Assembly (NCBI GenBank): GCA_964459555.1
Contig: CAYWNE010000005.1
Coordinates: 5,644-69,643, forward strand
Origin: an uncultured Burkholderiaceae bacterium
Lineage (GTDB): Bacteria; Pseudomonadota; Gammaproteobacteria; Burkholderiales; Burkholderiaceae_D
DNA: 64,000 nucleotides
Direction: 5' to 3'
Shown: piece after piece, positions 7,456-23,171 of the stretch
Numbering within the stretch: the first letter of the stretch is position 1
Layout of the letters: each line of letters starts with the position of its first letter
Notes under the pieces: generated by a model
Told to the model about the DNA's origin: nothing
Seen by the model: the letters and a program-made list of their open reading frames with translations, nothing else
Database searches by the model: none
Program-made: the position numbers and the translations under genes

Positions 7456-8082
7456 ATGTCGATTGCGATTATTGGTGCAGGAAACGTAGGTGCGGCACTC
7501 GCAGCAGCACTGTCAAGCAAAGGTCAGAAAGTCGTACTGGGCGTGAACACGCCCGGCAAATATCAAGCATTGATGCATCGTCTAGGGGCAAACGTGTCGA
7601 TGAGTACGGTCGCTGATGCGCTTGCACAAAACGACTTGATTATTCTCGCGGTGCCTTATCTCGCGCTTCAAGGCATCGCGAACCAGCTCACAGATTGGCA
7701 AGGGAAAATCGTGGTCGATGCCACCAATCCACTTGCCCCTGGCCTTACGGGACTTCTGTTGGGGACGAATACCTCGGGTGCCGAAGAGTTTTCTAAGCTG
7801 GCGCATGGCGCGCGTGTGGTGAAGGCCTTTAACACCATAGGAGCCGAGCATCTCGAAGATGCGAGTTTTACGGGCGGTATGCCTATGATGCCGATCTGCG
7901 GTGATGATGCTGAAGCGCGATTGCGCGTGAAGAGTTTGGTAAGCTTGATTGGATTCGAGGCCATTGATATGGGCTCTCTATCCGCCGCGCGTATCATCGA
8001 GCCGATGGCGATGGCTTGGATTCATTTAGCGATCAAACTTGGCGCGGGACGGAATTTCGCCTTTGGAATGCTGAGGAAATAG
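7456..8082 (+). CDS. NADP-binding oxidoreductase, NADPH-dependent F420 reductase (NpdG)-like
   Basis: Rossmann motif IAIIGAGNVGAALAAAL at the N-terminus. The overall layout resembles F420_oxidored-type proteins. I chose the start at ATG 7456, which is preceded by AAGAGGA. Confidence 0.7.
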   Translation: MSIAIIGAGNVGAALAAALSSKGQKVVLGVNTPGKYQALMHRLGANVSMSTVADALAQNDLIILAVPYLALQGIANQLTDWQGKIVVDATNPLAPGLTGLLLGTNTSGAEEFSKLAHGARVVKAFNTIGAEHLEDASFTGGMPMMPICGDDAEARLRVKSLVSLIGFEAIDMGSLSAARIIEPMAMAWIHLAIKLGAGRNFAFGMLRK

Positions 8083-8413
8083 TGCCGTAGTGCAGTGGCG
8101 GGAGATTTTGATTGCGGGGTACGGCGGTCAATAGGTGTCTCCCAACGGGACAAAATCAAACGCTATAGGCACTTGTAATAGTGAATGGGTTGTCTTTTGT
8201 GATGCGAACTCGGCTAATTTCTATGCTTGTCATCTGCTCAAGATTGATCTCTTCAAAAGGAGACTGGTCAAAACGATAATCTGTCACGATTGTTACCCAA
8301 GAAGCTTGCCGGAATCGAATATAACAAGAGGGTGATGTTGTTGTGACGCTGATGCCAGCAAGCTAATGACGACTCCGACCACTTGCAGCGTGTTACCGAG
8401 CAATTCTTCGTTT

Positions 8414-8499
8414 CTTCGAATACTTCATCGCCATTTTCTGCTAAATATTGTTAGCATGACCGACTTCCTTCATGACCCACAACATGTAGCGGATATCCA
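8414..8499 (-). pseudogene. about 86-bp remnant of the 3' end of an S46 peptidase gene
   Basis: Nucleotide alignment by eye to 10760-10845 and 21050-21135. The shared block is ...catgac(c/t)cacaacatgtagcgga(t/c)atcca, the antisense of ...MDIRYMLWVMKEV. There is no intact ORF. Confidence 0.7.
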
Positions 8500-8719
8500 A
8501 GCGAATCGATTGACCAGTTCAATGCCATCACGCGCAGAGAAATCAATAGAAACCATGGAAATCAACGAACAGCTTAGGAAGCCATTTGAATTTCATTGTT
8601 TCCTAAATTGAAAGAGATGGCCTAGCAAATGTGAGTCCATTTGTTCTGTTGCTTCTTGAGATGGATGTCTATTCAGTTCTCCATTCAGTTCGATCCTTGC
8701 ACTCACAATTAGAATTGCA

Positions 8720-9056: not shown

Positions 9057-9152
9057 TTGATCGATTCTGTAATCGAACGTCGTCGGGTAGCCTCGATGTT
9101 TCCTTCATTTCGACTCATGAAAAATGCCGCAGAGACGGGCGCACTCAGCCCT

Positions 9153-9671
9153 CTATTTTTCTGCAGGCACAGGATCAACTCGGTGTTTCTTATACCGACC
9201 TTTTTCATCAAACAATACGGCGAATTCTACTAAACGCAAGGGCATTAATTTCGCTTTGTGTTGGACCAGGTAGGCATCGACTTTTGCTTGAGCATATTGT
9301 TCTGGTAGCGCGGTTTGGTAGCGCAAGAGCGTATATGAATTGGAGAAGCGCACTCGAGTGGTTTCGCCCAAGGTTTGTAGCACTTGATCGAATGTCCTAG
9401 GTTCTTGCTGCAGAAAGAGGATTGTTTTTTCGTAGTCGATGATGGGGACGCCCTTCACATTGATTGGTACTAGATAACAGTCTTTGAGTTTGGCCAGATG
9501 TTCGGGGATGGTAATGTCTTTTGGTTGCTTGAGTCTTCGAGCAAAGGCTTTGGGATCTTCTCGCCATTCTTCTTCGGTGGGGAAGCTGCATGCCGTGAGG
9601 TTAAATAGAATGCCGATAAGCAGCAGGGCACGGGGTATCAGTTTGCTTTGATGAGCTCGGTCGTATCGCAT
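9153..9671 (-). CDS. hypothetical lipoprotein
   Basis: 172 aa. Signal peptide plus lipobox (LFNLTACS). It lies 3 nt downstream of the preceding ORF, so a two-gene operon is likely. No family recognised. Confidence 0.5.
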   Translation of the reverse strand: MRYDRAHQSKLIPRALLLIGILFNLTACSFPTEEEWREDPKAFARRLKQPKDITIPEHLAKLKDCYLVPINVKGVPIIDYEKTILFLQQEPRTFDQVLQTLGETTRVRFSNSYTLLRYQTALPEQYAQAKVDAYLVQHKAKLMPLRLVEFAVLFDEKGRYKKHRVDPVPAEK

Positions 9672-9674
9672 TGT

Positions 9675-10553
9675 TCAGTCTTCCACGAATTCAATTTCAA
9701 TCAGGGTGTCGTCAGGCCATGATGTATCGCTCAAAGGGGGGGTGAAGCTTAGTTCTTCCAATGGGTGAAGTTGGAGCCAGCCATTTTGGAGATCGCCTGG
9801 ACCAAAGATTGAAATGGGATGTAATCGTTGCCCATAAAGACTTCGCAGAGGAAGTTGTACGTGACGACTTCCATGCGAGAGACTTACTTTGAAGATAGGG
9901 TGTTCTGCAAGGAAAGGAATTGTTGGTTTCTCGAAGAGGCAAGGATTCGATAGCACGGCGAGAAGCGCGCGTTTGCTCAAACTTACGATATCAGTTTTTT
10001 CTCTGAATCGAAGGGTTTTTACGAAGACCTCACAATTCACACGCAGTTCGCCGAGCCTTAGTCGATTTTCTGGAAGATCCGGCGACTTAACCTCCGCTAT
10101 AAATCGTAGTTCTGTTTCCGAGTAGTTCGACAAAATAACGGCATCCTCTTTGAAAGCCAAATCGTTGTTAGGCAGTTCAAATCGAAAATCTTCCGTGATG
10201 TGAATGGGCGTTTCAAAGGTCTCACCAGCTAAGCGCAAGCGTACTTGTTTGAGGTCGACCTCAGGCTTAAGCGGAATTAAGCGAAACCGCAAGACCGCAC
10301 CGGGTACACGTGCTCGCAAGGATTCAAATAGTTGTCTACCGCCATCGAGAAATCGATAGCTTCTTTCCTCGGGGTGGCGCGTGTGGTTAATCACCACACT
10401 AGACTGATCGGTCTGAGCTTGCGCACAGGAAGGACTAAGTATCGCGACAATGAGTAACCCAATGATCGTCAAATTAATAAATACTGCTCCCCATGAGGGA
10501 ATGGTAACTTGATGAACAGGCAAAGACATAGGTAGTCGAAAGCGCATGGCCAA
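9675..10553 (-). CDS. hypothetical exported/membrane-anchored protein
   Basis: 292 aa. It has an N-terminal hydrophobic segment (GAVFINLTIIGLLIVAILS..AQA). No family recognised. Confidence 0.5.
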   Translation of the reverse strand: MAMRFRLPMSLPVHQVTIPSWGAVFINLTIIGLLIVAILSPSCAQAQTDQSSVVINHTRHPEERSYRFLDGGRQLFESLRARVPGAVLRFRLIPLKPEVDLKQVRLRLAGETFETPIHITEDFRFELPNNDLAFKEDAVILSNYSETELRFIAEVKSPDLPENRLRLGELRVNCEVFVKTLRFREKTDIVSLSKRALLAVLSNPCLFEKPTIPFLAEHPIFKVSLSHGSRHVQLPLRSLYGQRLHPISIFGPGDLQNGWLQLHPLEELSFTPPLSDTSWPDDTLIEIEFVED

Positions 10554-10725
10554 GAATTTAAAAAATGCTTATATTGCCACGGTGTAGATTTTTTATCTAT
10601 TCCAAAATGAAATATAGCGGCTGTCAAATTTCTTGCCTCTTGCGTTCTTCCGGTAAGTAAACAAAAAAAAACCGCAAGGCCACAAGTGTATGACCCCGCC
10701 GTTCTTCAAGAAAATTCTTCAAAGA

Positions 10726-10980
10726 TTACTTCTTGTTCTTCACTTCCTTCGGATACTTAATCGTCATCTCTTTCAAAATATTGTCAGCATGATCGACTTC
10801 CTTCATGATCCACAACATGTAGCGGACATCCATGTGAATGGCGCGGGTGATTTTGGGGTCGAAGTACCAATCTTTGGTGATCGACTCGTAGGTGGAATCA
10901 AAATTCAAACCAATCAATTCACCGCATTTGTTCATCACAGCGGAGCCAGAGTTACCGCCTGTGGTGTCGGCACTGGTCAA
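10726..10980 (-). pseudogene. C-terminal fragment (about 84 codons) of an S46 peptidase gene, with its terminator
   Basis: LTSADTTGGNSGSAVMNKCGELIGLNFDSTYESITKDWYFDPKITRAIHMDVRYMLWIMKEVDHADNILKEMTIKYPKEVKNKK differs at only 4 residues from the C-terminus of the intact gene at 21015-23171. Homology stops abruptly at about 10980. The downstream terminator region (about 10663-10710) is also homologous. Confidence 0.8.
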
Positions 10981-11086
10981 GTAGGCGATTGTGAATGCCG
11001 ACAAAAGCGGGAGCTTATCGGTTGGGCTTTGTTATTCTGTCGGTCTTCACGTTTCGTTCCCCTAGACCCTTTGAGGCGAATAGTCG

Positions 11087-12214
11087 TCAAGAATCGTCTT
11101 GTCGCTCAAAACGCTGAAGAGAGTAGTCGACCATGCCTTCGACGCTTCCATAACTCGCGAAAGCTTCGCGCAGCAGACTAGCATCGCTTCCTGTATGAGA
11201 AATTCTATAAACGTGCTCGAGGGCATCGACCGAGCCTAAAGCTTCGGCTGATGGTCGAAGTTTTCTTAAGGTGGTTAAGATGTCCTCTCGAAGTGGAACT
11301 TGTTCATAAGTTTTGGGATGAACGATGGTGCCATCAAGGCCGAAGCGGCACGCTTGAAATCGATTGTAGTTGTACACGAGATAGTCATCTTCTGCCGGCG
11401 GGTCCTCGTTGCGCTCTAGCAGATATTTGCAAAGAGCCTGCAGATAGCAAGCCAAAGCGGCCGCGCGATCGACAGTCAGTGGCGTATCGCATACCCGTAG
11501 TTCTATCGTGCCATATTCAGGTTTCGGTCTGATATCCCAATAAAAATCCTTCATACTTTTCGCTACGCCTGTCATTTCCATTTTCTCGAAATAGTGTTTT
11601 CTGAACGCGTCCCATTCTAGGAAGAATGGTGCCCGACCACTTAAGGGAAAGGCGAATACGGAATTTAAGCGCGCGGAGTTAAATAAAGTATCGTGTCCTT
11701 GCACATAGGGGGACGATGCCGATAGCGCAATAAAATGGGGAATGTAGCGATTTAATGAATGCAAAAGAAATAAGGCTTCGTCACCGCTAGTGCACCCGAT
11801 GTGAACGTGCTGACCAAAAATCGTAAACTGCTTGGTCAAATATCCATACAATGCCGAGACCTCCTGAAAGCGAGGCTTCTTATAAATTCGCCTATCTGAC
11901 CAGATTTGGAAAGGATGTGTACCGCCACCGCAAATGCCGATGTTGAGTTGGTTTGCAGCGCGGAGCAGGATACTTCGTATGTCCTGTAATTCTTTGAGGA
12001 GTGTGGTGTGATTGGTGTGAATACTGGTGGCGATTTCAAGCATACTTTCTGTCACTTCAGGAGTAACAACGCCAGGAAAAGGAGCTCTGGATAACAACTC
12101 CAAGATGTCTGGGCTCGCCGCCATCAAATCAAAGTCACTTAGGCTCACGAGTTGCAATTCAAGTTCGACACCCATGCTGAGTGCTTGTGAATGTTTAAAA
12201 TTCTCTAGTGACAT
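11087..12214 (-). CDS. ybdK: carboxylate-amine ligase, YbdK/GCS2 family
   Basis: 375 aa. Family blocks [38 protein letters not shown] and [19 protein letters not shown]. Its start lies 1 nt after the stop of the upstream antiporter gene. Confidence 0.8.
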
Positions 12215-12215
12215 T

Positions 12216-13403
12216 TTATACCTCCTTATTTTCCGGAACTTCGTGCGCCCAAATCAAGACTTTTTGAAGAAGAATGGGGCCAAAAATTTCTAAAATAATT
12301 GCAGCTGTCGCTAACGGAGCGAGCTGATCGACGAAGTGAATACCAATGAAACGAGTCTGTTCCAGTACCAAGATAACGAATGCAGAAATTGGCATGGAGG
12401 CAAGGCCCACGAGTGCACCCTTGCGCCAAGAAATGCCGCTGACTCGCGAAAAAATTCCAATGCCGAAAACCTTGCAAAGCAAACGAACCGTCAGGATAGA
12501 GAATCCAAGACTTATGCCCATCAAAACTTGCCGCCATTCGATTGTCGTGGCGATAAATACGAACATCATGACTGCCAGTAAATCACCGATAGCACCGAAG
12601 CCGCGCTGAGACGCGTTTAGGACTATTCGACGATGCCTCACGAAGAGCCCGAAGGTCAGTGTGGCGAGAACAGGGGACAGCTTTAGACTATGGGTTAATG
12701 CGACGATTAAAATCACCGCAATCGTAAATGCTAACGTGCCATCTTGATGTAGGCGTTTACTCAACCGCAGTATCCCTGGGATGACGATCCCAAAGCTTGC
12801 GCCGATGAAGCCAGAGACTATTAGCGCAATGATGCTGTTGTACGCGGCGCTCCAAAGGTCGCCAGAGGTTTTGAAAATCTCTAAGCCAACAACGATCTTG
12901 AAGATGAACACGGCAAGTACGCAATTTAAAACAGACAGGTGCAAGCTACGCTCAGTCACTTGACCAGAACTCTTTTGTTCGTTTATTACGCGAAGAATTG
13001 TTGCCGGTGAAGTTGCCATAGAGAGCGCGGCGAGAAGTAGTGCGGTGATAGTTTCTTGGTTGAAGACGATTGCGAGAAAATAGACACCGATAAATGTCAA
13101 TGAGGCTTCGGTGATACTGGCAGCTGTGAGCCATGGATTTCCTCGAAGCCATCTTAAATTAATGCGATAGCCGCTCTCAAACAAGATGAGCCCGAAAGCG
13201 ATGTTTGCAATCAATAACATCAAAGGAGACGGCACCGATGGGAGTAATCCTAACTGTGATGGTGCGAGTAAAAAACCAGCGACCGCATAGGTACTAATTC
13301 TTGGCAATCGCAAACAACTATTTGCAAATTCGCCGACTGTCCAAGCGATGAGAATGGTAAGCGGCCAGGCTAACTCATTTTGCAGTGTAGTGAAATCGAG
13401 CAT
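12216..13403 (-). CDS. cation:proton antiporter (Na+/H+ exchanger, CPA family)
   Basis: Polytopic membrane protein with about 11-12 hydrophobic helices. The ORF 12216..13487 is trimmed to the ATG at 13403 ([15 protein letters not shown]), which is preceded by AAGGAG. Confidence 0.7.
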
Positions 13404-13506
13404 GTTGATTCTCCTTAAGCACTTAAGTTGCTTACTTCGAGTAATGAATACAAATACCTTTTGCAGCTCTGTGTCTGGTGAGACCAATAAATGGGATGCG
13501 TTGCGC

Positions 13507-14121
13507 CTACATCCATGGTGAGATGACCGGACAGGTTGTGGAGGAGTGGAAGTACTCAGATCGACCGCTTATTGGGTATTCTTTTTCTATCGTTAGTCGT
13601 TGGTTTCCAAAGCGTATGGAGAGCGTTCCGTTTGACTTGCCGTAGCGTACTGAACTCTGGCAGGCAAAGCTGAAGGGATCATCTTCAGCGCCTTCGAATT
13701 GGCAAGATTCCGATACATTTGTTTGGCTTTTTGTCTCACTCCCATCGGGCGCGATCGAGAATAAATCATACTTTTTACTGATTTTGTCGACGTTTATCCT
13801 TGAGTAAGTGCGAGAATCTGTGCAGCCATTATTGTCACAGGTTCTGCATTGATCTAATTGATAGTCCCGGCTGAGGGGAATAGTCGTAGTGGCTACGGAC
13901 TTACCATCCATTGCTGGCACATCGCTGCGCTCATAAATGAAGAAACTGATCGCAACCAAGATAATCAAAACGGTCAATCCCATTTTTAAAATGATCTTCA
14001 TACCTTGAGTGGAGCGAACTGTTATTTCCGGATTGTTCCTTTTTCTTTTTTTAATCCTTACGAAACCAAAAATGAGAAATACGACAGCAATTGAAGCGAT
14101 GGATACTTCGAGATAGGTCAT
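13507..14121 (-). CDS. hypothetical membrane protein with a Cys-rich extracytoplasmic domain
   Basis: 204 aa. Two N-terminal hydrophobic helices separated by KKRKRNN, then a domain with 7 Cys (CRTCDNNGC, CQFEG, FACQ, TTCP). No family recognised. Confidence 0.45.
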   Translation of the reverse strand: MTYLEVSIASIAVVFLIFGFVRIKKRKRNNPEITVRSTQGMKIILKMGLTVLIILVAISFFIYERSDVPAMDGKSVATTTIPLSRDYQLDQCRTCDNNGCTDSRTYSRINVDKISKKYDLFSIAPDGSETKSQTNVSESCQFEGAEDDPFSFACQSSVRYGKSNGTLSIRFGNQRLTIEKEYPISGRSEYFHSSTTCPVISPWM

Positions 14122-14154
14122 TTAAAACACTCCAAGAAGGTCGTCGAACAAAAA

Positions 14155-15414
14155 TCAAAGTACAACAAATGCGATTATCGCGACGAAAGTTGGGATTATT
14201 GCCCCTATGAAGAGTCCGGCAGCACCAACAGATTCATCGGTAAAGCCCGCCTTCAAGATCGCGACACCTGCCGGATTAGGTGCATTGGCGATAACAGTTA
14301 ATCCACCGCCGGCCACTGCACCAGCCACGAGACTATATTTCGCTTGATCGGAGATATCTGGGATGAGAGACCCAAGATAGGTAAGGGCCGCATTATCTGT
14401 AATGGCGGTCAGTGCTGTCGTTCCAAAAAATAAAGTTCTTGGCGACAGTTCAGTAATTAATGGTTGCAACCACCATTGTTGAAGACCACCAAGCACCACG
14501 AGGCCCGCGAGAAAGAATGAAACCAATAAAGCTTCTTTGATCAGTAATGGGTTTTGATATTGTTCGTAGGCTTGCGCAATGCCAAGAAACATCAGGAACA
14601 AACCCAAAAACGCCACGGGGTGATGGGCAAGCAATACAACTGCAATCAAAAACGAAAAATGAACCATCGTTAACAATGGAGGAATCGAATGCTCATGTTC
14701 ATCAAGGTTTGTCGATACTTCCTGATGCAAGTGTTTTCTTAAAACAAAAATGGCGAGACTAGCGTTCAGAAGAACCGCAATCGCAGCCTTCCAGCCGAAG
14801 TTCGTCAACATGAGGTGCGAGTCCCATTGCCATGCACTAGCGACCATCAATACGGGCGGCGCGGCAAATGAACTCAGCGTGCCGCCAATAGAAATGTTCA
14901 CGAACAAAATTCCGAGCACAAAGTACTTTATTTTCTCAGGCACCCAGGGTTGGAAAACAGTGGCGCGCAACAAAAGTGCGGCGATCGTCATGGCCGCTGG
15001 CTCTGTCACTGCAGAACCGAACAAAGGTACAGCGGCCAAGCTAAGCCATACTTTGCTTCCATCGGCACGGAAGGGCAGACTTTTCGCAATTTGATTAATA
15101 ATCGATGCGATACATTGCAATATGGGACGTGACGCTGAAATGACCATGACGACGAATACGAACAAAGGTTCGGTATATCGTCTTGATTCCACGTAGGTTA
15201 AAGCTTGAGCGCCCCCAGAGGCAAATGCCATGCAGAAAATTAATATGATGGCCCAGAATCCAAAAACAATTTCAACTTCGCCGAGTAAATGGAAAAGACC
15301 GCGATGGTGAGGAAAACGATGCGATAGGCGTTCGAATTGCTTGGCCAGAAATGTATGTGCAAGCGCGGCTGCAAATAAAAAAGCCGCAATATATTCGATA
15401 TTCATACTGAACAT
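14155..15414 (-). CDS. putative Na+/H+ antiporter family membrane protein (Na_H_antiport_2/DUF1504-like)
   Basis: Polytopic. The N-terminal block IAAFLFAAALAHTFLAKQFERLSHRFPHHRGLFHLLGEVEIVFGFWA matches what I remember of this family. The track start at 15429 is TTG and lies inside the leader element. ATG 15414 or 15405 is more likely. Confidence 0.55.
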   Translation of the reverse strand: MFSMNIEYIAAFLFAAALAHTFLAKQFERLSHRFPHHRGLFHLLGEVEIVFGFWAIILIFCMAFASGGAQALTYVESRRYTEPLFVFVVMVISASRPILQCIASIINQIAKSLPFRADGSKVWLSLAAVPLFGSAVTEPAAMTIAALLLRATVFQPWVPEKIKYFVLGILFVNISIGGTLSSFAAPPVLMVASAWQWDSHLMLTNFGWKAAIAVLLNASLAIFVLRKHLHQEVSTNLDEHEHSIPPLLTMVHFSFLIAVVLLAHHPVAFLGLFLMFLGIAQAYEQYQNPLLIKEALLVSFFLAGLVVLGGLQQWWLQPLITELSPRTLFFGTTALTAITDNAALTYLGSLIPDISDQAKYSLVAGAVAGGGLTVIANAPNPAGVAILKAGFTDESVGAAGLFIGAIIPTFVAIIAFVVL

Positions 15415-15420
15415 AGGCGT

Positions 15421-15490
15421 AGGGTGCAAAAAACGAGCGAGGCGGCCCGACCTTCGCTGTATCCTGCGTCACCGTTTGGTGCGCACCCTT
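15421..15490 (-). promoter_or_regulatory. structured 5' leader, copy A (candidate cation-responsive riboswitch with a terminator-like hairpin)
   Basis: The RNA sense strand reads AGGGUGCGCACCAAACGGUGACGCAGGAUACAGCGAAGGUCGGGCCGCCUCGCUCGUUUUUUGCACCCU. It shares a near-identical core with 20783-20836, and the variable hairpin shows compensatory changes. GCGAAGG/CCUCGC followed by U6 resembles an intrinsic terminator. Confidence 0.6.
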
Positions 15491-15588
15491 TTTGCATTCT
15501 AATCGATTTCTTTGATTTTGTTTCCGCATCGATTGGCGGTTTTTTTAGATCAGGTTTTGATTACATTTGCGTTGAGTTGAATGGTTGA

Positions 15589-16419
15589 TCAAATTGGATC
15601 TTTCTGAAGTATTTTCCGAATTTTCATTGCATCGCGAATACGATGCGATTTCGCCTTTGCATTGAGCAATACAAGCGTGGCTGTTCGTTTCGCCAATTTG
15701 AGTTTCATGATTAAGCAATTCCCTGCCTCATTCGTGAAACCCGTCTTCGACATGAGGACATCCCAACCAGATTTTCCGATAAGTCTGTTCGTATTGTGAA
15801 AAATTCTTGTGCGTCCTCTTACATCGAATTCGTCTGAAGTTTCCGTCGTTATTTCTTGAATAAGCGGGTATTTTGATGCTGCTATAGCCATCTTCATTAG
15901 GTCCGAGGCAGTTGATGTGTTTTGGCTCGATAATCCGGTGGGCTCATTGATCGTGGTTTTTCGCATTCCTAAAGTTTGTAATTTCCAATTCACCGCATTC
16001 TTGAATGCTTCTAGTCCGCCAGGGTAGGTTCTAGCGAGCGCAGATGCCGCTCGATTGTCAGATGACATCAATGCCAATTGCAGAAGTTCTAAACGAGAAA
16101 ATTCTTCGCCGACCGGTATTTTGGAACGACTATGTTTAAGGCGATCTACATCAGACTTTTCAATTCTGATCAACTGTTCGAAATCAGGCTTGCTATCAAT
16201 GACGACCATCGCCGTCATTAATTTTGTGAGTGAAGCGATTGAGGTCTGCTCGTCAGCATTTTTCTCGACAATGATTTCACCACTTTCATCGTCGACTACG
16301 AGTACATGTTGTGTTTGAAAATCGGTCGCATAGGCAGAGAAACTAGCGAGAACAAGAAATAAGAATGAGTATAATTTGAACAGCCGTAGCGCGGACGAAG
16401 TAATTCTTTTCATGCACAT
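15589..16419 (-). CDS. pbpG: D-alanyl-D-alanine endopeptidase (PBP7-type, peptidase S11)
   Basis: 276 aa. Signal peptide, SxxK (SLTKLMT), SxN (SDN) and KTG (SKTGFT) motifs in the canonical order. Confidence 0.8.
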   Translation of the reverse strand: MCMKRITSSALRLFKLYSFLFLVLASFSAYATDFQTQHVLVVDDESGEIIVEKNADEQTSIASLTKLMTAMVVIDSKPDFEQLIRIEKSDVDRLKHSRSKIPVGEEFSRLELLQLALMSSDNRAASALARTYPGGLEAFKNAVNWKLQTLGMRKTTINEPTGLSSQNTSTASDLMKMAIAASKYPLIQEITTETSDEFDVRGRTRIFHNTNRLIGKSGWDVLMSKTGFTNEAGNCLIMKLKLAKRTATLVLLNAKAKSHRIRDAMKIRKILQKDPI

Positions 16420-16556
16420 AATCTACATTGACGATTGTGGAAGAAAGTCAGACGATTGCAACGAGGTCGCCATCTCTACAACTCGCAAAGGAGACGTGGT
16501 TACATCATGTTTCGCATGAATTGACCACGTCTGCGATTTTGATATTTGGATCGTCG

Positions 16557-17084
16557 TTATTTTGGTAAATAGACGATATCAGCACGGCGGTTTTCTGCCC
16601 ATGCAGCCTCATCATGTCCGTTGGCCTTCGGCTTATCTTTACCAAACGATACAGATTCAATTTGAGATTCGGTCACACCCAAAGTGAGCATGACTTTTTT
16701 CACCGCGTCTGAGCGTTTTTGGCCGAGTGCGATATTGTATTCACGGCCACCACGTTCATCGGTATTTCCTTGGATGAGAATCTTTTGTGCTTTGTGCGTC
16801 GCCAAGTATTTTGCGTGTGCTTGCACGAGCGCTGTGAATTCTGGCTTCACTGCGTAATTGTCATAGTCGAAATAGACACTGCGCTTTGCGAGCACACCTT
16901 TCGGGTCGAGCAAGGGATCGATCCCTTGTGCCACAACAGGCGCGACTGTTCGCGTATCCGCAGGTTTCGGTTGTGTAACCGGTGCGACAGGGGCAGGCGT
17001 CTCAGCAACCTTGACAGGTGAACTGCAGGCAGAAAGGAAGGCGATAGTTGAAACAAGTAAAGCAGTGCTGTTTGTCATTCTCAT
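16557..17084 (-). CDS. OmpA-family peptidoglycan-associated lipoprotein (Pal-like)
   Basis: 175 aa. Lipobox (FLSACS), a Pro/Ala/Val-rich linker and an OmpA_C core (NTDERGGREYNIALGQKRSDAV...NRRADI). It is not in a tol-pal cluster, so I do not call it pal. Confidence 0.8.
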   Translation of the reverse strand: MRMTNSTALLVSTIAFLSACSSPVKVAETPAPVAPVTQPKPADTRTVAPVVAQGIDPLLDPKGVLAKRSVYFDYDNYAVKPEFTALVQAHAKYLATHKAQKILIQGNTDERGGREYNIALGQKRSDAVKKVMLTLGVTESQIESVSFGKDKPKANGHDEAAWAENRRADIVYLPK

Positions 17085-17205
17085 GGAAATACTCCTTGGT
17101 AAGAAAAGAACGTTTTAAGACTCTTATAGTATTGAGAGTTCCACGATTCTCTGGCCTGAGTGTTTCTGCCTTAAAGCCAATATTTCCAGAGGTGAATCTG
17201 ATGGT

Positions 17206-17706
17206 TTACATCGTGAATGGTAGAGGCAAGTTTTCAAATCCTTCATCCACCACTTCAATACTCTTGATCAGTCCGGCAAGACCGAATTTGAGATGTGATA
17301 AATCAGCTTCATCTAAGTTTCTAAGGGCTTCGGGCAATAGGCCTCGGGCTGGCTTTGGAGCTTTCAAGAGCAAAGCAACACCTTCCTCCGTGAGACTCAC
17401 GCGAACAGCACGTTGGTCATTGGGATCTCTCGTTTTTTTTACGAAAGATCGTTTTTCCAAGGCATCTATCAAGTTACTCGTTGTGGTTTGATGCACCGCT
17501 AGACGATGTGCTAATTCACCGACCCGTAAATCGTTTTCCTCGTAAAGTTCTTGCATTAGCCAAAGTTGCGCACCGTTCACCCCGCATTGCTTTTCAATCC
17601 AAAGTGAGTGTTGCTGTGCAGCCCGGATGACAACCCTTAGCTGCTTTAAAATCTCCAATGAACTTGGCACCACGACCTGTTCAGATGAAAGATGTTTTTT
17701 TGGCAT
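17206..17706 (-). CDS. MarR family transcriptional regulator
   Basis: The ORF is trimmed to the ATG at 17706 (MPKKHLSSEQ). Winged-helix core: LRVGELAHRLAVHQTTTSNLIDALEKRSFVKKTRDPNDQRAV. It is divergent from the ClC gene. Confidence 0.8.
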   Translation of the reverse strand: MPKKHLSSEQVVVPSSLEILKQLRVVIRAAQQHSLWIEKQCGVNGAQLWLMQELYEENDLRVGELAHRLAVHQTTTSNLIDALEKRSFVKKTRDPNDQRAVRVSLTEEGVALLLKAPKPARGLLPEALRNLDEADLSHLKFGLAGLIKSIEVVDEGFENLPLPFTM

Positions 17707-17747
17707 GGCATTTCCTTCGTTTCGTAGTCTAACACATATATAATGGT

Positions 17748-17762
17748 GCAAATATAATTTGC
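17748..17762. promoter_or_regulatory. perfect palindrome GCAAAT-ATA-ATTTGC, candidate MarR operator
   Basis: Read directly from the sequence. It lies in the 124-bp MarR/ClC divergent intergenic region. Confidence 0.35.
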
Positions 17763-17830
17763 GCCAATGTAATTTGATAATTGAGGCCTTCTTGTCGGTA
17801 ATACACAAAAAAGGCTTAGATGCACGTCTT

Positions 17831-19138
17831 ATGAAACTTTCAAATTCGTATCTTAACCAATTTTACCGACAGCTTTTCAGTAGACTTGGCGTCATTTCGC
17901 ATCGTGGGTTTGCCTGGATTATTGGCCCCATACTCATCTCGACCGCTGCGATCAGCCTTGCGCTGGCAAGCGAGGAAGTCGCACGATTTCAAAGGGCAAT
18001 GGTCGGTTATTCCAGATTTCTTCCTCTTGTGTTGTTGCCACTTGGTTTTATGGTTCTAGCGTTTCTCGTAGGCCGTTATTTTAACGGCGCGCAGGGAAGT
18101 GGAATACCTCAAACCATTGCTGAACTAGATAATGCGAGCGATGAAAAAAGCGAGAAGTGCTTATCAGTGCGTATTTTGTTGGGGAAAATTTTGTTCACAA
18201 TAGGCGGCTTATCAATAGGCGCGTCAATTGGTCGTGAAGGGCCAACCGTTCAAATTGGGGCATCGATCATGCATTGGTTCTATGGAAAGGGGCCATTTCA
18301 GAACGCTGAGTTAAGACGTACTTTAATCGTCGCCGGTGGTGCCGCAGGCATTGCGAGCGCGTTTAACACCCCTCTTGCTGGACTAATGTTTGCAATTGAA
18401 GAGCTGAGTAAGAAACATCTTTTTACGGCGAACAGTTCGACCTTAGTCACGATTATCGTTTCTGGACTTATTTCAGTGTCATTCTTGGGAAGTTATACCT
18501 ACTTTGGAACCTCACCCGCACAGCTGTTATGGAGCAACGGAATTGGAGCAATTCTTCTTTGCGCACTAGTCGGCGGTTTGGCCGGGGGCAGTTTTAGTCG
18601 GCTTCTGATTGGATTCTTATTTGATTTGCCAACGCGACTAGCCTCGCTTATTGAAAAGCACAAAATTGTTTTTTCAGGACTCTGCGGATTCCTCATCGCA
18701 TTGCTTGGTCTACTGAGTGATGGTGTTGTCTATGGAACCGGATACGAGCCGACGCGCGCACTGCTTGAGGGGCAGCAAAACATCACTTCAAGCTTTGGGA
18801 TAGCAAAATTTTTCGCGACTTTGCTTTCCGCAGTCAGCGGTATCACTGGCGGGATTTTTGCCCCATCATTGGCAGTTGGCGCAGGGATTGGCGATAACCT
18901 ATCCGCGCTGGTGCCAGTGCTGGCCGACCGCAGTGCAATCATATTGCTGGTCATGGTGGCCTATTTGTCGGGGGTAACGCGGGCACCGGTCACTTCATTT
19001 CTCATCATGATGGAAATGACCAATAGCCACCAAATGCTGATCCCTTTGATGGCAACTTCTGTGATAGCCAGCACGGTAGCTAAATTCGTGTGCCCGGTGC
19101 CGCTGTATCACAAATTAGCGGAACGATTTGCGGCCTAG
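17831..19138 (+). CDS. ClC-family chloride channel / H+-Cl- antiporter
   Basis: Canonical selectivity motifs GSGIPQ, GREGPTVQIG and GIFAPS are present, and the protein is polytopic. The ORF 17759.. is trimmed to the ATG at 17831 (MKLSNSY). Confidence 0.85.
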   Translation: MKLSNSYLNQFYRQLFSRLGVISHRGFAWIIGPILISTAAISLALASEEVARFQRAMVGYSRFLPLVLLPLGFMVLAFLVGRYFNGAQGSGIPQTIAELDNASDEKSEKCLSVRILLGKILFTIGGLSIGASIGREGPTVQIGASIMHWFYGKGPFQNAELRRTLIVAGGAAGIASAFNTPLAGLMFAIEELSKKHLFTANSSTLVTIIVSGLISVSFLGSYTYFGTSPAQLLWSNGIGAILLCALVGGLAGGSFSRLLIGFLFDLPTRLASLIEKHKIVFSGLCGFLIALLGLLSDGVVYGTGYEPTRALLEGQQNITSSFGIAKFFATLLSAVSGITGGIFAPSLAVGAGIGDNLSALVPVLADRSAIILLVMVAYLSGVTRAPVTSFLIMMEMTNSHQMLIPLMATSVIASTVAKFVCPVPLYHKLAERFAA

Positions 19139-19220
19139 ACAAAACCTCATAGGCAATGTGACTCTAGTGACCAGAAAGCCAGGATTATCGAAAATTCTGG
19201 CTAATTTTTTGGCTTCGAAT

Positions 19221-20405
19221 TTATTGAGATTCAAGTAAGCCCAATTTTCGCATTAGTGGTGTCATGGTTAAACCCTGAACCACAACCGAGAAGGCAACGA
19301 CGGCGAAAGCCATCGTGATGATTTCGGCACGGAAAGGTATGTCCTGTGGAAGACCGAGTGAGAGTGCCAATGCCAAGGCTCCACGGAGACCACCCCACAC
19401 AAGAATATGCTGGTGTGCCATGGAAATGCTCTGACTCGACTTTCTAAAGATCGCCGCAAGTGGATAAATCGCCACTGCGCGTCCCAGTAAAACGAATACG
19501 ATGGCGACAGCCGCTGGCATGAGAAGAGATGAGAAAGATTGCTTTGCTTCGTGTATGCCTATTAGGATGAAGATTAAAGAATTGGCGACAAAAGCAGCGA
19601 ATTCCCAGAATGCTTCGACCGATTCATGGCCTTTCTCGGTGATAGCACCAAGATGTCCACGATTGCCAATGATTAATCCAGCGGTGAGTGTCGCCAGTAC
19701 GCCGGACCAATGAAAATGCTCCGCCGCGAGGAAGGAACTATAGGCGGCGACGGTGGTAAGTGTGAGCTCGACTAGGTGGTCACGCGTTTTGCCAGCGAGA
19801 TAAAGAGTGATGAATGCGATGACAGTGCCACAGGCCACGCCGCCTCCAACAATTTCTAGGACGTTGATGGTCGTTTCTACCGCGGTCGGGGCTTTGCCAG
19901 ATGCGAATGCAAGTACCAGCCCAAACAACACTGCAGCAGTTCCATCATTAAAGAGGCTTTCTGATTCGACTAAGATCCGTAGCTTACCTTTCACACCAGC
20001 TTCCTTGAACGTGGCAATGACAGAAACGGGATCGGTAGCGGCAATGAGGACGCCGAAAATTGCGGCAGAAATTAGCGGCCATCCCAAGATCCAATACATT
20101 CCTGCCGCGGTGACTAACGCCGACAAGATGAGACCCACGCTCGCCAAAACGAGGACGACGGGCAGCACTTTTCTGAGCTCGCCCCATTTCAAGGCGATCG
20201 CTGCCTCAAAAATGAGCGGGGGCAGCAAAGCCGAAAAAATGAGCTCCTTCGTCAGTTGAATACCTGGAGTGAACGGCAGGAAGGTCAAACCGATCCCCGC
20301 AAACAATAGTCCTACGGTATAGGGGAAATGGAATCGCCGCGCCAACATGGCGACAACGGCTGCTAGAAGCAGTAGAAATTCGATACTTTCAATATGTGTT
20401 TCCAT
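19221..20405 (-). CDS. Na+/H+ antiporter, CPA1 (NhaP-type)
   Basis: Polytopic, with the ATDPVSV block typical of NhaP/CPA1 exchangers. The track start at 20420 is TTG. ATG 20405 (METHIESIEF) is preferred, but the start remains uncertain. Confidence 0.75.
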   Translation of the reverse strand: METHIESIEFLLLLAAVVAMLARRFHFPYTVGLLFAGIGLTFLPFTPGIQLTKELIFSALLPPLIFEAAIALKWGELRKVLPVVLVLASVGLILSALVTAAGMYWILGWPLISAAIFGVLIAATDPVSVIATFKEAGVKGKLRILVESESLFNDGTAAVLFGLVLAFASGKAPTAVETTINVLEIVGGGVACGTVIAFITLYLAGKTRDHLVELTLTTVAAYSSFLAAEHFHWSGVLATLTAGLIIGNRGHLGAITEKGHESVEAFWEFAAFVANSLIFILIGIHEAKQSFSSLLMPAAVAIVFVLLGRAVAIYPLAAIFRKSSQSISMAHQHILVWGGLRGALALALSLGLPQDIPFRAEIITMAFAVVAFSVVVQGLTMTPLMRKLGLLESQ

Positions 20406-20481
20406 ATCGCTGTCTTTCAAATAAGTGATGAGTCGTGACAGGCTTGATTAGCCTTTTCAGTTTTCGTTTCTGTCCGCTCGG

Positions 20482-20763
20482 TTAAATTAATTTTCCGAAA
20501 ACATCAATGACAGCATCAAGTGAAGTAATTGAGTCATGGTCGATTTCTCTAGCAAGAATGGTTTGTTTATTAGGATCGAGAAGTTCCTGATTAAATTCAA
20601 AAGCAATGACGAAAATGCCGACTGAAAATTGAATTCTTCTGGAGAGAAGCCAGATACCCAAATAGTACCGTGCTAAGTCAAAGCAGACGAAGAGCGTGGT
20701 CAATTGGATGAAGAAGGTCGCGACATAGCTCGCGACAATAGAGACTATTGTGAGCTTTTCCAT
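20482..20763 (-). CDS. hypothetical small membrane protein
   Basis: 93 aa with two hydrophobic helices. It is the first ORF after leader copy B and lies 61-76 nt upstream of the NhaP-type gene, depending on which start is used. No obvious Shine-Dalgarno sequence, so coding status is uncertain. Confidence 0.4.
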   Translation of the reverse strand: MEKLTIVSIVASYVATFFIQLTTLFVCFDLARYYLGIWLLSRRIQFSVGIFVIAFEFNQELLDPNKQTILAREIDHDSITSLDAVIDVFGKLI

Positions 20764-20782
20764 GGGAGTAAATGACAGAAAG

Positions 20783-20836
20783 TGCGAGGCGGCCCGACCA
20801 TCGCTGTTCCTGCCACATTCCTATGAATGGGCACCC
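20783..20836 (-). promoter_or_regulatory. structured 5' leader, copy B (same motif as 15421-15490)
   Basis: The RNA sense strand reads GGGUGCCCAUUCAUAGGAAUGUGGCAGGAACAGCGAUGGUCGGGCCGCCUCGC. The core GCAGGA(N)ACAGCGA(W)GGUCGGGCCGCCUCGC is shared with copy A, while the flanks are unrelated. Confidence 0.6.
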
Positions 20837-20952
20837 GCGGAGATTTTAACGTAATTGTGTAAATAAGTTAAGACTGATCATTATCCATGTGCGTGAAAAA
20901 TGCAGGGTACGGTTTAGAAACACAACAAACTGAAAAATGTGCAAATCTGGCT

Positions 20953-20997
20953 CAAAAAAAAACGGCGAGGTCACTAGTGTGATACCCCGCCGTTTTT
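20953..20997 (-). terminator. intrinsic terminator of the S46 peptidase gene (A-run/T-run flanked, potentially bidirectional)
   Basis: aaaaaaaacggcgagg...ccccgccgtttttt: a GC stem flanked by an A8 run and a T6 run, 18 nt downstream of the stop codon. Confidence 0.7.
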
Positions 20998-21014
20998 TAA
21001 GAGGCTTTCAAAGA

Positions 21015-23171
21015 CTATTTCTTACTCTTCACTTCCTTAGGATATTTAATCGTCATCTCTTTCAAAATATTATCGGCATGATCGACTTCCTTCATGACCC
21101 ACAGCATATAGCGGATATCCATGTGAATGGCGCGCGTGATTTTGGGGTCGAAGTACCAATCTTTGGTGATCGATTCGTAGGTGGAATCGAAATTCAAACC
21201 AATTAATTCACCGCGCTTGTTCATTACGGCGGAGCCAGAGTTACCACCCGTGGTGTCGGCGCTAGTGAGGAAGTCGACCGGTACGGTGCCGAGTGCTGGA
21301 TCTTTGAAGATGCCGTAGCGCTGTTCTTTGATCGCAGCCAATAAATTTGCAGGCGCGATGAAAGGATCTTTGCCGGTGTGTTTCTCAGCGATACCTTCGA
21401 CCGTGGTGAAGGGGCCTTTGGTGACGCCATCACGTGGTGAGTAAGAACCGACTGTACCGTAGGTGACACGCAAGGTGCTGTTGGCATCAGGGTAGACGGG
21501 TTTGCCTTCGCTCTTCTTCCATGCGATCACGGCTTCCATGTATTGCGGAACGATGAAGTCGAGTTGACCATCGACTTCTTTGCGACGGTTTTCTAATGAC
21601 ATACCGATGTCATGTAACTTCACAGCCCATTGAATGAAAGCATCGTCAGATTGTTGGAAAGCGGCGCGATCTTTGTCCATCCATGCCAAGCGCTTGGCAG
21701 TGTCGGTCAATTGCGTTTTGCTGTACATCGCAGCAACCGCATCAGCGCTCGGCAGCAAGGCGTCGAGGCCTTGTGGATGTTTATCCATCTTGGCATATCG
21801 TTGCAATGCCGCTTGCAAACGCGCTTGATCAACCTTGGCAACGAAGGATTGTTCCAAGCGCGTCAGGCGACCTTTGATCAGCGCCAAGTCACGTTCTTGA
21901 TAACCAGATTCGCGCTGTGCATTTGGTTTTTCTTTTTCGATCGCCAAACGATACAGTGCACGTGCGCTGCTGAACAAATCGCTATTGGTGGCGACCGCGT
22001 ACGCTAACTCTTCTTGTGACAGCGCCATGTCTTCGGCGATGACCGCATCAAGCTTGGCCAACAAGGCTTTCGCTTCTGCCGGTGTTTTACTGGAGTCGAT
22101 CAACCAATTGCGGAAAGACGTATCTTGCGCATCTTTGATGGCTGCGATGTCTTTGCGTGCGAAGCCATCGATCAAGCCTTGGGTTTTCTTTAAACGATTA
22201 TTGATGCCTTTGACCACGCTGGCGTAACGGACTTCATCGTCGGCATTGCCCTTGGTTGCGGCTTCAATCGTCGCGATATCGGCCAACATTTCGGCGGCGC
22301 GTACTGGGTAGTCGGTGTCACGCGCGAAACGAATTTCTGCAGGCAGTTTGTAGCGGCTGGTACGGCCTGGGTAACCCGCTAACAAAATCGGATCGCCGTT
22401 CTTAATCCCTTCAGCAGACACCACCAAGAAATCTTTGGATTTGTAGGGCACATTGTCTGGTGACGGATCAGCAGGGCGACCATCTTTGCCAACATAAGCA
22501 CGCAAGAAGGAATAATCGCCCGTGTGACGTGGCCATTCGAAGTTATCGATATCACCGCCGTAGTTACCAATCATATCGGGTGGAGCGTAGACCAAGCGTA
22601 CATCGCGAATCATCATTTGACGAATGCGGTAGTACTCCAAACCACGGTGGAAGCTCGGCACCGAGCAACGGTAGGCTTTATCTTGCTCGCAATCGGCGAT
22701 GATTTTCTTGATGCGACTTTGAATTTGTTCGCGACGTTCACGGCCACTCAAATTCGCTGCTAAACCTTGCGTGACTTCTTTGGTCACATTGTCGACCTTG
22801 TCGGTGATATAGATGCGAGTGCTAGCACCGGCTGGCAATTCTTCAGCACGCGTCTTGGCGAGAAAACCATCATTGATGTAATTCTTCTTGGCGCTGGAAT
22901 TGCGTTGAATCGCATCGTAGGCGCAGTGGTGATTGGTGACGATCAAGCCTTCTGGTGAAACGAAAGACGCTGAGCAACCGCCAGTGGAAACGATGGCGCT
23001 CATAGGATGCTTGGACAAATCGGCCAGTTTTTCGGCAGGAATCGTGATGCCGATCTTCTTCAATTCGGCTTTTAGTTGCGGCAGTTGATACGGTTGCCAT
23101 TGACCTTCATCGGCGAAACTTGGCGCGGACATCGCTAATAGCGCCGCGGGTAGGGCGAGCTTTTTGAACAA
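21015..23171 (-). CDS. S46 family serine peptidase (dipeptidyl-peptidase 7/11-like), secreted
   Basis: 718 aa. Signal peptide (AMSAPSFA), an N-terminal catalytic His context (LIVTNHHCAY) and a C-terminal catalytic Ser context (TTGGNSGSAV), as in DPP7/DPP11-type S46 enzymes. Confidence 0.85.
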   Translation of the reverse strand: MFKKLALPAALLAMSAPSFADEGQWQPYQLPQLKAELKKIGITIPAEKLADLSKHPMSAIVSTGGCSASFVSPEGLIVTNHHCAYDAIQRNSSAKKNYINDGFLAKTRAEELPAGASTRIYITDKVDNVTKEVTQGLAANLSGRERREQIQSRIKKIIADCEQDKAYRCSVPSFHRGLEYYRIRQMMIRDVRLVYAPPDMIGNYGGDIDNFEWPRHTGDYSFLRAYVGKDGRPADPSPDNVPYKSKDFLVVSAEGIKNGDPILLAGYPGRTSRYKLPAEIRFARDTDYPVRAAEMLADIATIEAATKGNADDEVRYASVVKGINNRLKKTQGLIDGFARKDIAAIKDAQDTSFRNWLIDSSKTPAEAKALLAKLDAVIAEDMALSQEELAYAVATNSDLFSSARALYRLAIEKEKPNAQRESGYQERDLALIKGRLTRLEQSFVAKVDQARLQAALQRYAKMDKHPQGLDALLPSADAVAAMYSKTQLTDTAKRLAWMDKDRAAFQQSDDAFIQWAVKLHDIGMSLENRRKEVDGQLDFIVPQYMEAVIAWKKSEGKPVYPDANSTLRVTYGTVGSYSPRDGVTKGPFTTVEGIAEKHTGKDPFIAPANLLAAIKEQRYGIFKDPALGTVPVDFLTSADTTGGNSGSAVMNKRGELIGLNFDSTYESITKDWYFDPKITRAIHMDIRYMLWVMKEVDHADNILKEMTIKYPKEVKSKK

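Follow-up and report, generated by a model that had tools for sequence, protein, structure and literature searches.

Two antiporter leaders of a Burkholderiaceae contig as likely members of the nhaA-I (Li+-I) riboswitch class

What kind of element do the leaders of two ion-transport operons share on contig CAYWNE010000005.1 of an uncultured Burkholderiaceae bacterium? The question arises from a stretch of 64,000 nucleotides of this contig (the window, by which we mean the whole stretch analysed). In it, an initial annotation made from the letters alone had pointed to two 5' regions, here called copies A and B, that share a GGGUGC...GCAGGA...ACAGCGA motif. It had proposed a cation riboswitch, with nhaA-I among the candidate families and a new class as another possibility. 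From sequence comparison and folding, we consider it very likely that both copies are members of the nhaA-I / Li+-I class, each placed at about the 5' end of a cation/proton antiporter mRNA; according to the folding models, they probably act as translational ON switches.

The assignment is carried by covariance-model searches. Rfam 15 was searched with cmscan over the whole window, the gathering score of RF03057 being 37 bits. The leader of copy A is a full-length match to RF03057 (nhaA-I) at 15488..15438 on the minus strand (54.5 bits, expect value (E) 5.4e-08, model positions 1-55 of 55, not truncated), and so is that of copy B at 20836..20785 on the same strand (49.2 bits, E 1e-06, again 1-55 of 55 and not truncated). 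These are the sole Rfam matches above gathering scores in the 64 kilobases (kb). Sensitive local scans of 141 nucleotides around each copy, at E<=10, repeated RF03057 for both and gave no competing family above noise: CRISPR-DR17, Xoo2, DnaX, narK and mir-3003 reached 11-14 bits and were rejected. The DUF1646 (Na+-I) model had zero matches at either copy in these local scans, and the nhaA-II (Li+-II) model had none in the window at gathering score nor near either copy at E<=10. The idea of a cation riboswitch of the nhaA-I type has thus been borne out by the cmscan comparison that the initial annotation had suggested, and the same matches rule out a new class. The leaders are a known, curated and validated riboswitch in its usual context, which any Rfam-based annotation would find.

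The nhaA-I motif was reportedly discovered by Weinberg et al. in 2017. Having started as a riboswitch candidate, it was validated as the Li+-I riboswitch by White et al. (Sci Rep 2022, PMC9646797). In that work reporter activation was specific to Li+ at pH 9, in-line probing of the aptamer indicated 1:1 binding of Li+ with a dissociation constant of ~20-30 mM, the response to Na+ was about tenfold weaker, and mutation of conserved G nucleotides led to loss of the response. Li+ binding and activation were shown for members from A. caulinodans, P. monteilii and R. eutropha; Li+ binding turns expression ON, leading to export of the toxic ion, and the class is reported in Betaproteobacteria (PMC9646797). 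Within the papers accessible to us, a literature search spanning 2023 to 2026 found no solved structure of a Li+ or Na+ riboswitch.

Both leaders are read from the minus strand. In RNA sense copy A is A-GGGUGC-G-CACC-AAAC-GGUG-A-C-GCAGGA-U-ACAGCGA-A-GGUCGGGCCGCCUCGC-UCG-UUUUUU-GCACCCU-ACGCCU-AUG and copy B is GGGUGC-C-CAUUC-AUAG-GAAUG-U-G-GCAGGA-ACAGCGA-U-GGUCGGGCCGCCUCGC-ACUUUCUGUCAUUUACUCCC-AUG, a direct reading that confirms the shared motif. Exactly two instances of the 24-nucleotide 3' core, ACAGCGAWGGTCGGGCCGCCTCGC, are found in the window, at 15437-15460 and 20784-20807, both on the minus strand, and none of 100 dinucleotide-preserving shuffles matched it, even with 2 mismatches allowed. 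The conserved blocks of the family, GGGUG, GCAGG and GGU-CGGGCC-GCC, are all present in copies A and B. The first hairpin (P1) differs between them in sequence and in length, with CACC/GGUG as inner hairpin in A and CAUUC/GAAUG in B, and its pairing is kept; in the cmscan alignments its third pair reads G-C in copy A but C-G in copy B. The earlier observation of hairpins that differ, stay paired and include a covarying pair is therefore upheld by these alignments. The formula given then lacked a bulged base on the 3' side of P1, which is A in copy A and U in copy B. The aptamer proper of copy A is 15438-15488, and 15421-15437 of the interval annotated earlier hold a tract of six uridines (U6) and the GCACCCU segment.

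Both copies have all the family features open to examination in sequence, and the defining features of Na+-II, Na+-I and Li+-II are missing. With Li+-I (RF03057) the copies share the conserved blocks, the variable P1, a second hairpin (P2) of 7 base pairs with a 6-nucleotide loop and the U at the specificity position, together with a location in 5' leaders of genes for Na+(Li+)/H+ antiporters, pfam07399 among them, and a proteobacterial host. They differ from it by an A instead of U after GCAGG, by a P2 3' arm that is one base short and leaves a bulged base in the 5' arm (common to many Burkholderiales members), by the absence of a recognisable Shine-Dalgarno sequence from both leaders, and, in copy A, by the U6 after P2. 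Na+-I (the DUF1646 motif; PMC9337991) has a similar two-stem architecture, is likewise an ON switch for cation handling and overlaps in its gene associations (DUF1646/PF07399, nhaD, oadG), whereas its conserved nucleotides in the lower P1 and the P2 loop are distinct and its terminator stems compete with P2. Li+-II (the nhaA-II motif) shares the ligand and the kind of regulated gene, but it is unrelated in sequence and architecture and is reported only in some Gammaproteobacteria (PMC9646797).

Further evidence was obtained from related leaders. Among 80 genome loci that encode PF07399 homologues (61-71% identical, mostly Burkholderiales), at least 39 carry an nhaA-I aptamer directly upstream of the homologue, 33 found by a strict regular expression and 6 by Rfam. 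The Rfam check covered 11 of the loci negative for the expression, with 6 of the 11 positive, and the DUF1646 motif was found in none of these 11. Leaders were compared using 28 that the regular expression had found, and 29 aptamers make up alignment A1. The P1 sequences are mutually unrelated, and they form a foldable hairpin in all but two of the 28; the two that do not fold (L002, L010) had been mis-delimited by the regular expression. Because the MAFFT alignment A1 misaligns the variable P1, pair counting was limited to P2 and the two outer P1 pairs, and P1 was checked by folding each sequence separately. The covariance model relied on was the existing one of Rfam.

Across the 29 aptamers, 97.3% of the cells counted are standard pairs, and changes on both sides of a pair were seen in 11 cells of 2 P2 pairs. 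One P2 pair is swapped between A-U and U-A (10 vs 12 sequences), and another is changed once from G-C to C-G. None of 500 shuffles reached the observed covariation score, and none of 500 the values for pairing plus double changes; as the aligned sequences are related, these numbers confirm the published covariation of the family and are not an independent proof of it. When the partners are slid by one to three columns, the pairing collapses. The initial annotation would have been contradicted by a lack of further covarying homologues, and dozens of Burkholderiales loci were found to carry the element with a covarying P2. For copy B, six related contigs differ at only 3 positions between the GGG and the start of the open reading frame.

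Where transcription starts can be approached through the promoter-like sequences. In copy B the -10 box TAAAAT (20848..20843) ends 6 nucleotides before the GGG, and a TAnnnT hexamer ending 6-8 nucleotides before it is present in 25 of the 28 related leaders, including both copies (5-8 nucleotides were searched). Upstream of copy B, the relatives L085 and L086 have DNA unrelated to that of the window, which still provides TACAAT 7 nucleotides before the GGG; from the GGG onward these contigs match the window except for one base. Since the -10-like boxes of the two copies stand 6-7 nucleotides before the GGG, the aptamer would begin at about the 5' end of the transcript, and in copy A transcription probably starts at the aptamer or 1-2 nucleotides before it. 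We also observed that the homology of L085 (1788-1950) and L086 (4516-4678) to window positions 20740-20900 fades just upstream of the aptamer, as might be expected of a recombination junction at the start of transcription.

How the ion could reach the ribosome is suggested by the sequence between aptamer and start codon. In copy A, AGGGUGC (15489..15483) is the perfect 7-nucleotide complement of GCACCCU (15427..15421), which sits 6 nucleotides before AUG 15414, at -13..-7, the usual Shine-Dalgarno place. The duplex is worth -12.5 kcal/mol, whereas shuffled start regions average -5.6 (p ~0.002), and five pairs of this closing helix appear in both the minimum-free-energy and the centroid folds, stacked on P1; with the helix, the fold of the copy A aptamer goes from -18.4 to -23.2 kcal/mol. 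The pairing of the 5' AGGGUGC with GCACCCU before the start codon, which had been put forward as an expression platform, thus agrees with the folding and shuffle tests. A helix from GGGUGY to the start region was also tried as a general rule of PF07399-associated leaders and rejected, being no better than shuffles in most GC-rich leaders; it is kept for copy A only. For copy B, minimum-free-energy and centroid folds coincide (-31.2/-31.4 kcal/mol vs -18.5 for the aptamer alone), and P2 is kept. In this fold GUGGCAGGAA, made of the P1 3' end and the conserved linker, pairs with UUUCUGUCAU (20781..20772), the P1 5' arm pairs with UCC.AUGGA including AUG 20763, and GGGU pairs with GCUC in codons 3-4.

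We hypothesize that, without ion, the unpaired 5' AGGGU(GC) of copy A would close the helix with GCACCCU and bury the ribosome landing site. In copy B the linker GGCAGGAA would pair with UUUCUGUC (20781..20774), the P1 5' arm with the AUG and GGGU with codons 3-4. GGGU is conserved and unpaired in the consensus and therefore presumably helps to form the ion site. To bind the ion, the aptamer requires both GGGU and the linker as well as an unbroken P1; binding would thus compete with the OFF pairings and free the start site. According to these models, both copies are likely to be translational ON switches. By our own reading of the published sequence, ACCUGC stands directly before the AUG of the validated A. 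caulinodans construct and is complementary to its GCAGGU linker, so the anti-linker design has a precedent. Most Li+-I members have been suggested to control ribosome access (PMC9646797), and the pairing that we model across the family agrees with this: in 24 of the 28 leaders, pairing of the start region to the aptamer exceeds that of shuffled spacers (mean 0.63 vs 0.47).

Several observations weigh against this interpretation. The base after GCAGG is A in both copies (15460, 20808) where the consensus has a highly conserved U; among the PF07399-associated aptamers of alignment A1 it is U in 25/29, A in 3/29 and C in 1/29. Folding z-scores of the whole leaders are modest, -1.2 for A and -1.6 for B. 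In copy B, 66% of the nucleotides of the start region are paired to the aptamer vs 32% for shuffled spacers, a difference that is not significant alone, as 14% of the shuffles are as high. In copy A the pairing of the start region (-12..+6) is 0.27 vs 0.31 in shuffles, this measure being no better than shuffles, as the AUG has the helix on its upstream side. The count of 24 of the 28 leaders overstates independence, the leaders being phylogenetically related. Moreover, the first gene after copy A belongs to PF07399/DUF1646, a typical target of the Na+-I riboswitch (PMC9646797).

Other explanations of the two leaders have to be considered. Chance, or a repeat at the DNA level (a protein operator, for instance, or a fragment copied by duplication), could account for the similarity without any RNA function, and the copies do lie 5.3 kb apart in one ~10-kb cassette with an identical 24-nucleotide core, as a duplication could give. 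However, both match a curated covariance model over its full length (E 5e-8 and 1e-6), P1 retains its pairing with a different sequence and length, the same element stands upstream of homologous genes in dozens of Burkholderiales genomes and covaries there, and it keeps its strand and its placement with respect to the -10 box and the start codon. There is next to no chance that the repeat explanation is right: the covariance-model matches, the homologous loci and the covariation effectively refute it, and the earlier view of a selected RNA structure instead of a protein-binding site holds. Within the RNA, copy A might act on transcription, if a hairpin beside the U6 (15433..15428), either P2 itself or a competing CGGGC/GCUCG stem, terminated it and the ion decided on its formation. 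On the minus strand, the terminator scan reports CGGGCCGCCTCGCTCG with TTTTTT behind it (CGGGC-CGCCUC-GCUCG, then U6). This CGGGC/GCUCG stem uses the P2 loop and excludes the aptamer, a logic known from Na+-I and Na+-II terminators; an extended form of it is part of the minimum-free-energy fold of the full copy A leader, and a U-run follows P2 in 5 of the 28 related leaders, some from GC-rich genomes. Yet the competing stem has only 5 base pairs and -5.1 kcal/mol vs -8.6 for P2, and nascent copy A RNA that stops at the U-tract still adopts the aptamer fold. With P2 itself as terminator, the ion would switch the exporter OFF, which is the wrong sign. The U-run lies 2-3 nucleotides away from P2, reads UUUAUU in the 97%-identical orthologous leader L084 and is absent from 23/28 related leaders, and terminator-like sites are not clearly enriched in the region (11 vs 6.8 +/- 2.9 in shuffles). 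Neither the terminator scan nor folding gave a separate terminator stem in either copy. We regard transcriptional action of copy A as unlikely. As for the 3' hairpin followed by U6 that had been described in copy A, the tract is there, but it does not directly adjoin P2, being separated from it by UCG, or by 2 nucleotides if an extra A-U pair is counted; the resemblance to a terminator seen earlier is weak.

Selectivity for the ion deserves the same scrutiny, because rare nhaA-I variants ("Na+-II") sense Na+ and have C instead of U at D. propionicus position 54, and the single base change C54U in that RNA shifts the specificity (PMC9646797). Copies A and B could therefore have the nhaA-I fold and respond to Na+, or to both Na+ and Li+. 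The gene association of copy A and the departure of both copies from the consensus U after GCAGG would fit such a response, and so would the U-run of copy A, as terminator-bearing variants are Na+ sensors (PMC9646797); two-hairpin fold and CGGGCC loop are common to Na+-II and the window copies in any case. Position 54 was mapped, through the M4 oligonucleotide of Supplementary Table II of PMC9646797, to the base just 5' of CGGGCC, and this base is U, not C, in both copies (GGU-CGGGCC), the Li+-I state. Both have GGGUGC and GCAGG in common with the three Li+ binders tested, among them the aptamers of the betaproteobacterium R. eutropha, and not GGGGUCC and GGAGG of the D. propionicus Na+-II RNA. 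They also lack the strong separate terminator stem and U8 of the latter. Na+-II variants, with their separate terminator stem, occur only in Deltaproteobacteria and upstream of genes of unknown function (PMC9646797), whereas the relatives here are Burkholderiaceae and the downstream genes are transporters; the DUF1646 (Na+-I) model, as said, is unmatched at E<=10. A Na+ or dual response is improbable on this evidence, and Li+ selectivity of copies A and B is inferred from their family membership. A subtype with altered selectivity (Na+ or dual Na+/Li+) or with a mixed transcriptional/translational platform, carried by a ~10-kb movable ion-homeostasis cassette, could be proposed because of the shared A after GCAGG, of PF07399/CPA1 targets rather than canonical NhaA, and of the U-tract in copy A; we hold it to be very unlikely.

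The genes that follow the two Li+-I leaders are in keeping with this class (Table 1). Copy A ends 23 nucleotides upstream of the start codon of the PF07399 gene and copy B 21 nucleotides upstream of a 93-amino-acid open reading frame, in each case on the same strand, and the statement that both copies precede cation-transport operons stands, with transporter genes of Pfam families PF07399 and PF00999. The PF07399 gene starts at AUG 15414; its N-terminus, MFSMNIEY, aligns with homologues, and its second in-frame ATG (15405) is TTG in L084. L084, whose contig stops at the PF00999 gene, has the copy A operon in the same order up to and including that gene; at the place of the 204-amino-acid frame of the window (13507-14121) it has a frame of the same length (7722-8336). 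The 93-amino-acid frame and the CPA1 exchanger behind it are both predicted by gene callers on related contigs. For the former, only homologues of 91-96% identity were found among 5.8 billion proteins, and synonymous to non-synonymous codon differences are 8:8, compared with 22:2 in the neighbouring CPA1 gene; it would be a small, lineage-specific membrane protein under weak constraint, or else no genuine gene. Published nhaA-I downstream genes include "sodium/proton antiporter", "cation/H+ antiporter", DUF1646 and many hypotheticals, and pfam07399 is counted among the 'NhaA' associations of the motif (PMC9646797). The gene context of copies A and B is that of the class's normal associations.

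Table 1. Features of the two leaders and of the genes behind them, in window coordinates
Feature	Position	Strand	Remarks
Copy A -10-like box TAGAAT	15501..15496	-	Ends 7 nucleotides before GGG; conserved in the L084 ortholog
Copy A aptamer, nhaA-I / Li+-I	15438..15488	-	Rfam RF03057
Copy A 5' AGGGUGC	15483..15489	-	GGGU unpaired in aptamer consensus; proposed arm of OFF-state helix
Copy A P1	15484..15466	-	Folds at -8.9 kcal/mol
Copy A linker AGGAUACA	15465..15458	-	
Copy A P2, loop CGGGCC	15457..15437	-	Folds at -7.2 kcal/mol (-8.6 in the comparison with the competing stem)
Copy A U6 tract after P2	15428..15433	-	Candidate roles: weak terminator-like tail, partner of the GCGAAGG arm in an alternative hairpin, U-rich spacer
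Copy A GCACCCU	15421..15427	-	Perfect complement of 5' AGGGUGC
PF07399 (Na_H_antiport_3, formerly DUF1646) putative Na+/H+ antiporter, 419 amino acids	14155..15414	-	Pfam 591.8 bits; first gene after copy A
Likely rest of copy A operon	11087..14121	-	Same strand, short gaps; probably co-transcribed
204-amino-acid open reading frame	13507..14121	-	Pfam-negative; between PF07399 and CPA antiporter genes
PF00999 cation/H+ antiporter	12216..13403	-	Pfam
GCS2/YbdK-type ligase	11087..12214	-	Pfam
Copy B promoter-like site TTAACT, 17 nucleotides, TAAAAT	20843..20871	-	Promoter scan, 9/12 matches
Copy B aptamer, nhaA-I / Li+-I	20785..20836	-	Rfam RF03057
Copy B P1	20832..20812	-	
Copy B P2	20804..20784	-	
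Copy B putative expression platform	20761..20781	-	AUG 20763..20761
93-amino-acid hydrophobic open reading frame	20482..20763	-	Pfam-negative; directly after copy B
PF00999 CPA1 Na+/H+ exchanger, 394 amino acids	19221..20405	-	Pfam 213.6 bits; after the 93-amino-acid frame

Both riboswitches and all the ion-transport genes are held in a segment of ~10.3 kb (about 11005-21007) with a GC content of 46.5%, compared with 49.8% in the rest of the window. Its genes encode PF07399, two CPA, ClC, MarR, OmpA-like, S11 carboxypeptidase and YbdK proteins; between the two riboswitch operons (17206-19138), the minus-strand gene of a MarR-family regulator diverges from a plus-strand gene for a ClC chloride channel or antiporter, and both belong to the same conserved cassette in relatives. 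The cassette is bracketed by direct repeats of the 3' end of an S46 peptidase gene with its terminator. The full S46 gene is at 21015..23171 on the minus strand, and its 3' end with the terminator hairpin occurs three times (8404-8506, 10662-11004 and 20953-21290). The second copy has ~330 nucleotides with 86-90% identity (open reading frame fragment 10726..11004) and the third piece, at 8404-8506, ~100 nucleotides with 80-84% identity. This arrangement has the look of modules appended in succession to the gene at its 3' end. Closest to the window are metagenomic contigs and a metagenome-assembled genome named "Burkholderiaceae bacterium", and the close relatives L084, L085, L086 and L087 carry the same cassette beside different genes. 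In L084 the neighbour is a DUF4124 gene. In L085 and L086 the neighbours are genes for 267 and 172 amino acids that lie in the window on the other side, at 9148-10400, and in L085 an rve transposase follows the OmpA-like gene. Within the cassette itself, no integrase was noticed.

In summary, the importance of this finding beyond annotation is small: two leaders can now be labelled Li+-I riboswitches. The prediction that follows is that the PF07399-204aa-CPA-YbdK and 93aa-CPA1 operons (aa, amino acids) would respond to lithium with induction, and perhaps to alkaline or sodium stress as well. For the class as a whole we can offer two modest additions. In PF07399-associated members the aptamer appears to start at the transcription start, and, according to our folding models, the region of the start codon tends to pair with the aptamer, which would support the published suggestion of translation control for most Li+-I riboswitches.

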